Shown piece by piece: positions 3,048 to 58,597 of a stretch of DNA of 64,000 nt. Numbering within the stretch: the stretch's first letter is position 1; every line of letters begins with the position of its first letter. The stretch spans positions 5,672 through 69,671 of the forward strand of contig JAGDXO010000022.1 of NCBI GenBank assembly GCA_023256615.1, in the 5' to 3' direction. Position numbers and translations under genes: made by a program. The notes below the pieces were generated by a model. It saw only the letters and a program-made list of their open reading frames with translations. It had not been told where the DNA came from and made no database searches. This DNA comes from Thermoplasmata archaeon. Its GTDB lineage: Archaea > Thermoplasmatota > Thermoplasmata > Thermoplasmatales > GCA-001856825.

Positions 3048-3192
3048 TTCATGCGTGAATCTCTTATAATATTTGCCTTGTGTTCATATATAAAATTAAT
3101 TATTTTTAATTTAAATTTTCAAAATTAAAAAAGTTTAAATATTCGATTTTAATTGCTAAGCAACAATAGGTTGATAACCAGAGGTGGTAATC

Positions 3193-3732
3193 ATGGTGAT
3201 TAGAAAAATAAGGAAGAAGGATGATGATGAATTCTGGGATGATATATATGAATTCCTGGAAAATGCTGATAGGGAATATAGAAAAATGTTCGAAAGATGG
3301 TTCGATACATTCGATGAAATAGAGAATATGAAAGATCAGCCGGGCACTTATGTCTATGGATTTACATACAAGGTAGGTCCAGATGGTAAACCAGTATTCC
3401 AAGAATTCGGAAATGTGCCAAAGGAATATTCAGAACTTCCAAGTCCGGAATATAGGGAACCGGCAACAGACATTCAAGAAAGGGAAAATGAGATATATGT
3501 TACTCTAGAGATGCCAGGGGTCAATAAGGAGGATATATCACTAGACGTGCAGGATAACACTCTAATTATAAAAGTTGACAGAGAAGGGAGAAAGTATTAC
3601 AAAGAGATAGAATTGGAAGATAAAATAGACCCAGATAAAATCAAGGCAACCTATTCAAATGGAGTCTTAGACATAGTCATTAAGAAAATTGAGCCGAAGA
3701 AAAAATCTGGAAAGAAAATTCCTATACAGTAA
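3193..3732 (+). CDS. hsp20: Small heat shock protein, Hsp20/alpha-crystallin family
   Basis: Alpha-crystallin domain (DIQERENEIYVTLEMPGVNKEDISLDV ... ATYSNGVLDIVIKK). The ATG at 3193 is preceded by GAGGTGG. The ORF track starts at the GTG at 3184. Confidence 0.85.
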   Translation: MVIRKIRKKDDDEFWDDIYEFLENADREYRKMFERWFDTFDEIENMKDQPGTYVYGFTYKVGPDGKPVFQEFGNVPKEYSELPSPEYREPATDIQERENEIYVTLEMPGVNKEDISLDVQDNTLIIKVDREGRKYYKEIELEDKIDPDKIKATYSNGVLDIVIKKIEPKKKSGKKIPIQ

Positions 3733-3734
3733 GT

Positions 3735-4265
3735 ATGACAGATATATTGGACCTGATAGATAATGAGATAAGAAGGAAAATACTCAGTATATTATCTATC
3801 AGGCCTTCTTATATTTTTGAACTTGCTAAAACACTTGGTACATCACAGCAGTTGATTTCTAAGCATTTAAAGATACTCGAAGATAGTGGTTTGGTTTACA
3901 AAATAGGAAAATTCGATTCTGAAGAAGGTCCTCAGAGAATTCTATATAAAGCAAATGCCCCTCTTCTTTCCTTATTGCAGTTCATTGAAAAAATTTCTCT
4001 TATGAACTTTGATAATGAAGATGAGGTTGATGAAAGAGATGTTGATATTGATAAACTTATTTCTGATCTCAAGTCCATAGATTCCGAGATTTCAGTTCTG
4101 GAGAGCAAAATAAAAGAACTAATTATAAGACAGCAGAGCATTCTCCTGAAGATCAATGAAATATTGAATGAAATGGATACTTCATCCTTGTTTAATCTTA
4201 TGGATGATGCTCTTAAGCGTGGGAATTTTGAAATTATTCTGGATGCTTTAAATAAGGTTCTTTAA
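3735..4265 (+). CDS. ArsR-type winged-helix transcriptional regulator with C-terminal coiled-coil
   Basis: HTH region RRKILSILSIRPSYIFELAKTLGTSQQLISKHLKILEDSGLVYK. Starts 2 nt after the hsp20 stop. Confidence 0.7.
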   Translation: MTDILDLIDNEIRRKILSILSIRPSYIFELAKTLGTSQQLISKHLKILEDSGLVYKIGKFDSEEGPQRILYKANAPLLSLLQFIEKISLMNFDNEDEVDERDVDIDKLISDLKSIDSEISVLESKIKELIIRQQSILLKINEILNEMDTSSLFNLMDDALKRGNFEIILDALNKVL

Positions 4266-4278
4266 TCAGTTTTATTAG

Positions 4279-4341
4279 GAGCAGATCAGACTGCCTGTCA
4301 CTCATCATCCATCAGTTAAGGCTGATGTCATCATCCTGCTC
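4279..4341 (-). ncRNA. C/D-box sRNA (2'-O-methylation guide)
   Basis: The minus strand reads GAGCAGG-AUGAUGA(C)-CAUCAGCCUUAA-CUGA(D')-UGG-AUGAUGA(C')-GUGACAGGCAGU-CUGA(D)-UCUGCUC. Both guide spacers are 12 nt and the D'-C' linker is 3 nt. A 6-bp terminal stem pairs GAGCAG with CUGCUC. It lies in an intergenic region. Confidence 0.8.
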
Positions 4342-4410
4342 AGTATGATAATTAAAACATAAATACATACTTAACTAATCTTTTTTTACATATACTCATT
4401 TTCTATATTG

Positions 4411-5703
4411 ATGAAAGAAACAGGCGGATTTATTATATCATCGGATAGGAGTGATTCTGGTAAAACGACAATAACACTGGGGATGATGAGATTATTCTCA
4501 AAAAAGTACAAAGTAGCTCCATTTAAGGTTGGTCCTGATTTTATTGATCCTATGTATCATAGGTTAGCTTCTGGAAATTATTCAGTTAATCTTGATCTAT
4601 GGATTATGGGCAAAAAAGGAGTTAAGGATATCTATGGCAAGTATTCTAAATTTCATGATATATCTATAATAGAAGGAGTAATGGGTTTTTATGATGGTTT
4701 AAATGGGAGATACAGCACATGGGAATTGTCTGATGTTTTAAATAAACCTGTTATAATTGTAATTGATTGCTCTAGAAATTCAACAACCGCTTCAGCTATT
4801 GTAAATGGTTTGAAAAATTATAAGAGGAATCACATCAGGGGTGTAATTTTCAACAAAGTTGCATCTCACTCTCATTATAATGACTGCAGAATGAAGTTAC
4901 CTAGAGGTATAAAATCACTAGGATGGATACCTTATAATGATTATCTTAAAATTGGATCCAGACATCTTGGCCTTCTGACTCCAGATGATAAATCTGAAGA
5001 TTTTATAAATAATGCAGCGGAATCAGTTGAAAATAATATAGATATTGACAGTTTAGCTGAAATAATAAGAATTGATGGTGAATATGAAACTCATAATCCT
5101 GGATTGGCTAACGAAAAGAAAGAAAAGGCTGCTGTTGCTTATGATAACGCTTTTTCCTTCTATTATTATGATAATATTGAAACTCTCAGAAATAATTATG
5201 AGTTGGAATTTTTTAGCCCCATTAAGAATCAAGTTGTAAAAGACCCTTCGTTTATTTATTTGGGAGGTGGATACCCAGAATTATTTGCGGAAGACCTTCA
5301 GAATAGTACTTTAACTAAGGGTTGGTTAAAAAAGGAAACGGACAAAGGAACTAAAATTTTAGCAGAATGTGGAGGAATGATGTATCTTTCAAGGAGTCTG
5401 AAAGTGGAAAAAAATTACAATATGACAGGTATTTTTGACGTTGAGGTTGTTATGGGAAAAAGAATTACGATTGGTTATACTGAACTTAAGGCAAGGGATA
5501 ATAACATTCTTTCAAAAAAAGGATCAAAGATAAGGGGACATGAATTCCATAAGTCTCAAATTTCAGATATTCGGGAAAAAAGGGTCTTTGACAACATTAG
5601 GGGGAGAGGTGTAGGTGACGGTACGGATGGTTTCCAATATCAGAATACTCTTGCCCTTTACTCACACAGCATTTTCTCATTTACCAGAGGAAAATTGTTT
5701 TAG
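4411..5703 (+). CDS. cbiA: Cobyrinic acid a,c-diamide synthase (CbiA/CobB)
   Basis: N-terminal P-loop SDRSDSGKTTITLG, a VAPFKVGPDFIDP motif, and a C-terminal glutamine amidotransferase domain with ECGGMMYL. The ATG at 4411 follows the TTG at 4408 used by the ORF track. Confidence 0.85.
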   Translation: MKETGGFIISSDRSDSGKTTITLGMMRLFSKKYKVAPFKVGPDFIDPMYHRLASGNYSVNLDLWIMGKKGVKDIYGKYSKFHDISIIEGVMGFYDGLNGRYSTWELSDVLNKPVIIVIDCSRNSTTASAIVNGLKNYKRNHIRGVIFNKVASHSHYNDCRMKLPRGIKSLGWIPYNDYLKIGSRHLGLLTPDDKSEDFINNAAESVENNIDIDSLAEIIRIDGEYETHNPGLANEKKEKAAVAYDNAFSFYYYDNIETLRNNYELEFFSPIKNQVVKDPSFIYLGGGYPELFAEDLQNSTLTKGWLKKETDKGTKILAECGGMMYLSRSLKVEKNYNMTGIFDVEVVMGKRITIGYTELKARDNNILSKKGSKIRGHEFHKSQISDIREKRVFDNIRGRGVGDGTDGFQYQNTLALYSHSIFSFTRGKLF

Positions 5704-50668: not shown

Positions 50669-50790
50669 AGCGTATTGCTATAGTTCTTTTGCTCATTGTG
50701 CACCTGGTGATCTTGTATCATCAGGGAAGGACTGAAATCCTTTTTAGGATTAATGAAGGTCAGCATAGGGTTAAGATATAGAGAATGGAG

Positions 50791-53709
<2,919 letters not shown>

Positions 53710-53846
53710 TCCATTTTACTTAACCCTTGCTGATTGTGAGCATTTTTTATTTCCGAAATAATGTGAATAAATTTTTATCTACCCTAAATAAATTTTTTAA
53801 AAATGGTATAGGAAATCAAATTTTAAAGAAATTATTGGTAAAAGAA

Positions 53847-58512: not shown

Positions 58513-58597
58513 TGCGGGGGGAGGGATTTGAACCCCCGAACTCCTACGAGACCAGACCCTGAATCTGGTGCCTTTGACCAGGCTCGACAACCCCCGC
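58513..58597 (-). tRNA. tRNA-Leu (anticodon CAG), long variable arm
   Basis: Reverse complement GCGGGGGTTGTCGAGCCTGGTCAAAGGCACCAGATTCAGGGTCTGGTCTCGTAGGAGTTCGGGGGTTCAAATCCCTCCCCCCGCA. Acceptor stem GCGGGGG/CCCCCGC, anticodon loop TTCAGGG, class II variable arm. Confidence 0.93.

Follow-up and report, generated by a model that had tools for sequence, protein, structure and literature searches.

Three described archaeal box C/D small RNAs (sRNAs) carry a guide with the same core and in the same register as the RNA analyzed here, namely the D guide of Nanoarchaeum equitans sR25, the D' guide of Methanopyrus kandleri sR32, and the D' guide of Pyrococcus sR60 (Rfam RF01309). RNA-seq-verified sets of archaeal sRNAs were published by Dennis et al. 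(2015; PMC4644070), and the target table of that paper assigns M. kandleri sR32 to G884 of 16S rRNA. By counting on the 16S alignment provided there, we equated G884 with E. coli G902, the first G past the GCAA tetraloop in helix 27; helix 27 is also a named methylation hotspot. In the same alignment, N25 is marked on the helix 27 block, and the D guide of N. equitans sR25 (AUUCAGCCUUGG-CUGA) makes 10 contiguous Watson-Crick pairs with helix 27, which places the G after the GCAA tetraloop at N+5. The second guide of sR25 (AUGAUUCAACCG) is marked on the block of the 16S alignment that spans E. coli 920-1010 and, by our reading, would pair near position 955. For sR60 itself, no targets were found in the searchable literature. 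Targets of archaeal C/D sRNAs in tRNA are established as well (e.g., Pyrococcus sR50 and the tRNA-Trp intron), and over 90% of archaeal taxa are reported to have fibrillarin.

The window (i.e., the whole 64,000-nt stretch of DNA that was analyzed) contains a 63-nt element of this kind on its minus strand. We put at roughly 0.8 the probability that this element is an unannotated archaeal C/D-box guide RNA gene, conserved in Thermoplasmatales, whose D' guide is directed to helix 27 of 16S rRNA; no report of the gene was found in the literature. The kind of element, its mechanism, and the target site in helix 27 are already known, and the present data do not change the understanding of C/D RNPs. 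With sR60, the window sRNA shares the overall architecture as well as the core and register of the D' guide (GUUCAGCCUAAG in sR60 versus CAUCAGCCUUAA in the window), the agreement being 7-10 of 12 positions across orthologs and 10 of 12 for the guide of the L021 ortholog (CUUUAGCCUAAG). The D guides of both RNAs contain GUGAC, but this motif lies 4 nt further from box D in the window sRNA, and the nucleotide at N+5 therefore differs. The two RNAs also differ in their hosts, which are Thermococcales for sR60 and Thermoplasmatales for the window sRNA. In N. equitans sR25, the shared guide (UUCAGCCUU, in the same register as in the D' guides studied here) adjoins box D, whereas in the window sRNA it adjoins box D', and the second guides are unrelated. 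M. kandleri sR32 agrees with the window sRNA in the core of its D' guide (GUUCAGCCUUG) and in the D' position of that guide; however, its internal boxes are degenerate, unlike those of the window sRNA, and its second guide, which is directed to 16S U857, 27 nt away, is unrelated to the D guide of the window. A helix 27 guide is thus common to Thermococcales, Methanopyrus, Nanoarchaeum, and Thermoplasmatales and ranks with the methylation guides of relatively wide distribution. Besides this spread, the interest of the locus lies in its constant linkage to hsp20 and ArsR-type genes and in a conserved D guide whose likeliest partner would be a tRNA anticodon arm.

Anatomy and genomic setting of the element

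Read on the minus strand from 4341 to 4279, the DNA sequence is GAGCAGG ATGATGA CATCAGCCTTAA CTGA TGG ATGATGA GTGACAGGCAGT CTGA TCTGCTC, which corresponds to the RNA GAGCAGG-AUGAUGA-CAUCAGCCUUAA-CUGA-UGG-AUGAUGA-GUGACAGGCAGU-CUGA-UCUGCUC (cf. Table 1). A first-pass annotation, made from the letters of the window, had proposed this 63-nt minus-strand C/D-box sequence with two 12-nt spacers and a 6-bp GAGCAG/CUGCUC stem, and rereading of the window reproduced the sequence, all box coordinates, and these dimensions exactly. It had also described the element as a local GC-rich island, in agreement with a GC content of 0.45 at 4290-4349, compared with 0.15-0.30 just upstream of the sRNA gene (4320-4409) and about 0.30-0.38 on the other side, within the winged-helix (wHTH) gene. 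No open reading frame of at least 40 amino acids was found over the element. A strict four-box expression (RTGATGA, 10-14 nt, CTGA, 2-12 nt, NTGATGA, 10-14 nt, CTGA) matched once when both strands of the 64-kb window were searched and in none of 300 first-order Markov versions of the window, while a looser four-box expression had an expectation of 0.05 matches per window. The four-box arrangement is not a chance event; the first-pass annotation had likewise judged that a chance origin would be surprising. Neither the regular expressions nor a whole-window Rfam scan revealed further C/D-like elements in the window.

At Rfam gathering thresholds, the whole window yielded only the archaeal 23S rRNA (cf. 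Table 1) and two tRNAs. When the thresholds were relaxed, matches to about 25 box C/D families of archaea appeared on the minus strand at 4279-4341. The best of these matches was Pyrococcus sR60, with 37.0 bits (under the gathering cut-off of 50) and E-values of 1.5e-7 locally and 2.9e-5 when the whole window was compared with all 4,227 families. Judged by sequence score, the element is related to sR60 yet is not a member of that family as Rfam delimits it.

If the RNA behaves like characterized archaeal C/D sRNAs, it would adopt an internal D'/C' K-loop and, at its ends, a C/D kink-turn that the 6-bp stem closes, and its predicted protein partners are L7Ae, Nop5, and fibrillarin. In such an RNP, the nucleotide opposite position 5 of either 12-nt guide would come to lie in the methyltransferase site. 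The variability of the D'-C' loop fits an unconstrained K-loop linker. A crude motif check found no fibrillarin gene in the 64-kb window. In the predicted minimum free energy (MFE) fold, there is partial pairing between the guides, of GCCU in the D' guide with AGGC in the D guide; with an MFE z-score of only -1.5 for the 63-mer, nothing indicates that this guide-guide pairing matters.

Table 1. Coordinates of the C/D element, its putative promoter, and other features of the window
Feature	Position	Strand	Remarks
Whole box C/D sRNA	4279..4341	-	63 nt, bounded by the terminal stem; delimited by sequence, conservation edges, and Rfam matches
Terminal stem, 5' strand GAGCAG	4336..4341	-	Partner is 4279-4284
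C box AUGAUGA	4328..4334	-	UGAUGA invariant in 24/24 orthologs; first base A or G
D' guide CAUCAGCCUUAA	4316..4327	-	12 nt; guide position 5 from the D' box is C at 4320
D' box CUGA	4312..4315	-	Invariant; 100% pairwise identity
D'-C' loop UGG	4309..4311	-	Free variation: 2-4 nt, 15 versions in 24 orthologs
C' box AUGAUGA	4302..4308	-	UGAUGA invariant; pairwise identity 97%
D guide GUGACAGGCAGU	4290..4301	-	12 nt; guide position 5 is G at 4294
D box CUGA	4286..4289	-	Invariant
Terminal stem, 3' strand CUGCUC	4279..4284	-	Partner is 4336-4341; 6 bp
Putative archaeal promoter	4371..4387	-	30-46 nt upstream of the stem; function predicted from sequence
BRE-like A-rich run	4381-4387	-	Part of the putative promoter
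TATA-like TTAGTTAA	4371-4378	-	Part of the putative promoter
D'-guide complement AUGAGGUUGAUG	4021-4032	+	In the wHTH gene; one of three sites in 64 kb
D'-guide complement UUAAGGUUGGUC	4523-4534	+	In cbiA; one of three sites in 64 kb
hsp20 and ArsR-type wHTH pair	3184-4265	+	wHTH with a long coiled C-terminal half
ArsR-type wHTH gene	3735-4265	+	Convergent with the sRNA
sRNA-cbiA spacer	4342-4410		About 69 nt, from the sRNA 5' end to the cbiA start
23S rRNA gene	50789-53712	+	Stands alone in the window
tRNA-Leu(CAG)	58513-58597	-	Anticodon loop UUCAGGG

The sRNA is convergent with the wHTH gene and lies 14 nt past its stop codon, while the divergent cbiA starts 67-70 nt from the sRNA, depending on the choice of start codon. 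The spacer between the sRNA and cbiA must house two divergent promoters and has the highest AT content of the region (GC content of 0.15 at 4350-4409). Exact-protein matches place the window on contig JBMFGS010000001.1 (GCA_049977225.1, 171 kb), of which it forms a part or to part of which it is nearly identical, and the region also occurs in JGI, ENA, and Logan assemblies; in all of these gene calls, the spacer that holds the sRNA is empty. The first-pass annotation had called the element "hidden"; the element is indeed there, but the word says too much, as the gene is merely unannotated, like most small RNA genes of metagenome-assembled genomes (MAGs). Annotated C/D sRNA genes are rare in archaeal MAGs, and the record for Thermoplasmatales (the acid-mine-drainage "plasma" lineages and their relatives) is sparse.

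Conservation in Thermoplasmatales

An alignment of homologs of the wHTH protein provided 24 loci from Thermoplasmatales MAGs, I-plasma included. The C/D element was present at the same place and in the same orientation in 23 of them, and the contig of the 24th stops too early. In the window and all 23 orthologs, the spacers are 12 + 12 nt long and the four boxes are invariant; together with the matches to about 25 Rfam C/D families, this bears out the C/D-sRNA reading offered at first pass. The mean pairwise identity of the RNA parts is 83-100%, as against 38-39% for the 30-nt blocks on either side. Since the boxes, the 12-nt spacers, and the stem have been kept while the D'-C' loop and both flanks diverged, the element is, on this sequence comparison, under purifying selection. 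All six pairs of the terminal stem are kept in at least 95% of the 21 distinct orthologs, and members of the I-plasma group have a stem of 9 bp. One compensatory change, from G-C to A-U, affects the outermost pair, and A-U/G-U alternation occurs as well; this variation is sparse, and the covariation of the stem was not statistically separable from that of shuffled controls. On the aligned sequences, the terminal stem is thus conserved, but not proven by covariation.

The linkage of hsp20, wHTH, and sRNA was found in all lineages, the hsp20-wHTH pair, putatively stress-related, adjoining the sRNA in 24 of 24. The adjacent wHTH protein has a homolog with 99% identity in a Thermoplasmata MAG, and the wHTH proteins of the most distant orthologs (L022-L024) are 45-59% identical to that of the window (local tblastn). 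The neighbor on the far side varies, as cbiA occurs there only in the group of the window and in L022, and elsewhere its place is taken by a cobalamin adenosyltransferase gene. Despite the 38-39% identity of the upstream region, an equivalent of the putative promoter, with an A/G-rich run and then a TATA-like element, was present 18-37 nt upstream in all lineages, in the form of GAAAAGAG-CTATTCAAA in the I-plasma group and of TTTATAAAT or ATAAGAAAAA in the others. An oligo-T run directly follows the 3' strand of the stem in most orthologs. From the promoter-like element upstream and the oligo-T run downstream, we infer that the sRNA gene is probably transcribed independently.

These data also bear on two readings in which the element would not be a methylation guide. 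It might be no RNA gene at all, but a chance array of motifs or a hairpin terminator shared with the convergent wHTH gene, given that its terminal inverted repeat lies 14 nt past the wHTH stop codon and that the folding signal of the 63-mer (z-score of -1.5) is weak. A terminator, however, needs neither invariant UGAUGA and CUGA boxes nor conserved spacer sequences, and the boxes and 12-nt spacers have been retained between flanks that are 38-39% identical; along with the absence of the four-box pattern from 300 simulated windows, this pattern of conservation refutes such a reading, to which we attach hardly any probability. The sRNA could also act as a cis or near-cis antisense regulator of the wHTH and cbiA mRNAs, because two of the three non-self matches of the D' guide in the window (10-bp core, at most two G·U pairs) lie within about 315 nt of the sRNA, in the sense strands of these two genes (cf. 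Table 1). Yet neither site recurs in any of the 23 orthologous loci, including those of the closest relatives (L001 and L002), and in most lineages cbiA is absent from beside the sRNA. Being unconserved, the sites were taken as chance matches, and targeting of the neighboring mRNAs was rejected as extremely improbable. A separate D'-guide complement, AUGAGGUUGAU, is shared by the two closest relatives (L001 at 6718 and L002 at 4780, plus strand), about 2.1 kb from the sRNA gene, and has no counterpart in the window.

The D' guide and helix 27 of 16S rRNA

The core of the D' guide, U(C/U)AGCCU, is fixed in the orthologs, and variation is confined to positions 1-3 and 11-12. It is the core of the published guides described above, in the same register; the 9-mer UUCAGCCUU in the D' guide of the distant ortholog L022 is identical, again in the same register, to that in N. 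equitans sR25 and M. kandleri sR32. At the corresponding site, 16S rRNA reads CGCAAGGCUGAAAC in five of the seven archaea of the published alignment, Sulfolobus and M. maripaludis having GACU in place of GGCU. Three of the seven 16S rRNAs were assembled from that alignment, and contiguous helices spanning N+5 were scored. Eight D' variants (seven from Thermoplasmatales and that of Pyrococcus sR60) were compared with two real archaeal 16S rRNAs, and for every one of them the helix 27 site ranked first or second among the contiguous helices, as it did for the N. equitans sR25 control. With the 16S rRNAs of other archaea, the D' guide of the window forms 8 Watson-Crick pairs (A900-A907) and those of its relatives 8-9, with a C-G pair at N+5. 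Taken alone, 8 contiguous pairs are weak evidence, as 20-23 of 200 shuffled guides (10-12%) did equally well. However, the invariant positions of the D' guide coincide exactly with the paired ones. Taken together, (i) the published guides in the same register, (ii) the coincidence of invariant and paired positions, and (iii) the status of helix 27 as a methylation hotspot indicate that the D' guide very probably directs ribose methylation in helix 27 of 16S rRNA.

According to this assignment, the D' guide would pair with the 3' strand of helix 27 (A900-A907) and lead to 2'-O-methylation of G902, which adjoins the GCAA tetraloop near the decoding center. The host 16S rRNA is assumed, from other archaea, to carry GGCU at 902-905, and it would be expected to read AAGGCUGA at 900-907 and GCAAGGCUGAAA at E. 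coli positions 898-909. The gene thus affords a testable prediction, namely Gm at the equivalent of E. coli G902 in helix 27. The first-pass annotation had derived a fully complementary 12-mer target for each guide and had looked for them in 23S rRNA, finding no perfect match. For the D' guide, the target need not pair over the full 12 nt, the conserved 16S site offering 8-9 bp; its supposition that the targets lie outside 23S rRNA agrees, for this guide, with the identity to the published helix 27 guides. A segment of helix 40 in M. kandleri 16S rRNA (UUAAGGCGGAUG) matches the D' guide of the window at 11 of 12 positions and was rejected, as the other D' variants fail there and the region varies between lineages.

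Candidate targets of the D guide

Selection on the D guide is as strong as that on the D' guide. The D-guide sequence UGA(C/U)AGGC is nearly invariant among the orthologs, and the three bases next to box D occur as AGU in the clade of the window, L005, and L022-L024 and as GAU in I-plasma and all others, with each state fixed in a clade, while the equivalent positions of the D' guide show five versions in the same lineages. Because only two states occur here, as opposed to free variation at D' positions 1-3, the bases proximal to box D probably pair with the target, which would then read A(CU/UC)GCCUGUCA. Neither guide had a match in the 23S rRNA, tRNA-Phe, or tRNA-Leu of the window that was better than those of shuffled guides; in the case of 23S rRNA, an equal or better match was obtained by 168 of 300 and 48 of 300 shuffles of the two window guides. 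The earlier remark that 23S rRNA contains no perfect target is therefore correct, and 23S rRNA is not the target of the D guide. No match of either guide was seen by eye in tRNA-Ser(UGA) on the extended contig, and no homolog of the D guide was present among the 489 sRNAs of Dennis et al. (PMC4644070). A guide so strongly conserved in spite of having no rRNA match constitutes a clean test case for the acquisition of non-ribosomal targets.

Among the candidates considered, we tentatively favor the anticodon arm of tRNA-Asp(GUC), nucleotides 27-38, as a target that has a little less than an even chance of being the true one. In tRNA-Asp, the anticodon loop is CUGUCAC, and the pairs G30-C40 and C31-G39 are common. 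The D guide could pair with the near-universal tRNA-Asp motif GCCUGUCAC, which comprises the anticodon loop together with the stem bases G30 and C31. If tRNA-Asp were the target, the invariant core of the guide would be accounted for by the frozen anticodon loop, and the alternation of AGU and GAU by a swap of two pairs in the stem. The host tRNA would be expected to read ACUGCCUGUCAC at nucleotides 27-38 in the clade of the window and AUCGCCUGUCAC in that of I-plasma, with ACUGC and AUCGC, respectively, at 27-31. Both of the corresponding arms, ACUGC...GCAGU and AUCGC...GCGAU, are found among natural tRNA-Asp genes, those retrieved being bacterial. Among the matches listed in a metagenome scan for the predicted arm, there were only bacterial tRNAs, nearly all of them one marine tRNA-Asp; the inspected metagenome contigs of the ACUGC type came from CPR-like bacteria, and a scan of viral contigs gave nothing useful.

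The position that would be modified is unusual. If GUGAC of the sR60 D guide (GGGAGUGACGGA) pairs with nucleotides 34-38 of tRNA-Asp, its N+5 nucleotide would be U35. As GUGAC lies 4 nt further from box D in the window sRNA, N+5 would fall on nucleotide 31 of tRNA-Asp, in the anticodon stem, rather than on positions 32, 34, 35, or 39. To our knowledge, no 2'-O-methylation has been reported at nucleotide 31 of a tRNA. Wolff et al. note that U35 of tRNA-Asp is the predicted target of a P. furiosus C/D guide in the Lowe database, but the Um35 predicted in Pyrococcus tRNA-Asp was not detected by mass spectrometry.

Two sites in 16S rRNA compete with tRNA-Asp. The 1400 region (nucleotides 1398-1409, ACCGCCCGUCAC) would place C1402 at N+5, near the apparent match of the sR60 D guide, whose GGGAGUGACGGA forms 7 pairs with CCGUCAC (1403-1409) in M. 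kandleri, so that both guides of the RNA would act around the decoding center; there are documented precedents for dual guides joining rRNA segments that are far apart in sequence but near in space. Apart from two G-to-A differences, the D guide is a perfect complement of this segment (10 of 12 positions pair), which is invariant in seven archaea and E. coli and was the best D-guide site by a crude score in the 16S rRNAs of M. kandleri and M. maripaludis. Nevertheless, all 24 orthologs place an A opposite C1404 and have one more A·C mismatch (at position 2 or 3), and the perfectly matching G, which selection for this target would favor, was never seen at the mismatches. Furthermore, no uninterrupted helix exceeds 5 bp, an equally good score is reached by 9-26 of 200 shuffled guides, and the contiguous-helix test does not pick the site at all. 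We therefore regard the 1400 region as a very unlikely target. The other candidate is a lineage-variable part of 16S rRNA near the D' site, such as the loop and 3' strand of helix 26, where a variable hairpin loop would account for the ACU/AUC alternation. The 3' strand of helix 26 begins with GCC in seven of seven archaea, that of M. maripaludis (UGCCUAUCUAG) can be set beside the predicted UGCCUGUCAC, and the location would suit the rule, given in a review, that most rRNA guides come as nearby pairs with sites within 100 nt; the second guide of M. kandleri sR32, for instance, pairs only 27 nt from G884. Against it, helix 26 diverges strongly among archaea, yet the core of the D guide is invariant even in L022-L024, and a frozen target, e.g., an anticodon loop, agrees better with this invariance than a variable hairpin; we consider helix 26 and its surroundings unlikely. 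Beyond tRNA-Asp, helix 26, and the 1400 region, what is left of the probability would fall to some other RNA or to the D guide having no methylation target.

A further hypothesis combines the two guides in one RNP with two substrates, of which helix 27 would be methylated through the D' guide, while the D guide would have moved from 16S h44 to the tRNA-Asp arm. Its ancestral target would be CCGUCAC (1403-1409) of h44, as inferred for Pyrococcus sR60, and the 9-mers of the tRNA-Asp arm (GCCUGUCAC) and of 16S rRNA (GCCCGUCAC) are nearly identical. The D guide would now track the anticodon stem of tRNA-Asp by clade (AGU versus GAU), and the outcome might be an unprecedented 2'-O-methyl group on nucleotide 31 or a role in chaperoning or sequestering tRNA-Asp. 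We view this scenario as speculative and somewhat unlikely; if true, it would be a concrete and datable case of guide retargeting between rRNA and tRNA.

Some minor observations concern the rRNA and tRNA sequences examined. The 16S hexamer just upstream of helix 40 (E. coli 1158-1163) is ACUGCC in most archaea and AUCGCC in M. kandleri, i.e., the complements of the two 3' ends of the D guide, which is probably a coincidence. On the extended contig, neither a 16S nor a 5S rRNA gene was found over about 50 kb before and about 18 kb after the 23S rRNA gene, and such a lone 23S rRNA gene agrees with the unlinked rRNA genes described for Thermoplasma. The contig extension of about 17 kb contains two tRNAs, tRNA-Ser(UGA) and tRNA-Arg(CCU). 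Within the window, tRNA-Leu(CAG) combines U8-U9 with U32/G38 in its anticodon loop (cf. Table 1), an unusual combination that Wolff et al. described for Euryarchaeota, including Thermoplasma acidophilum.
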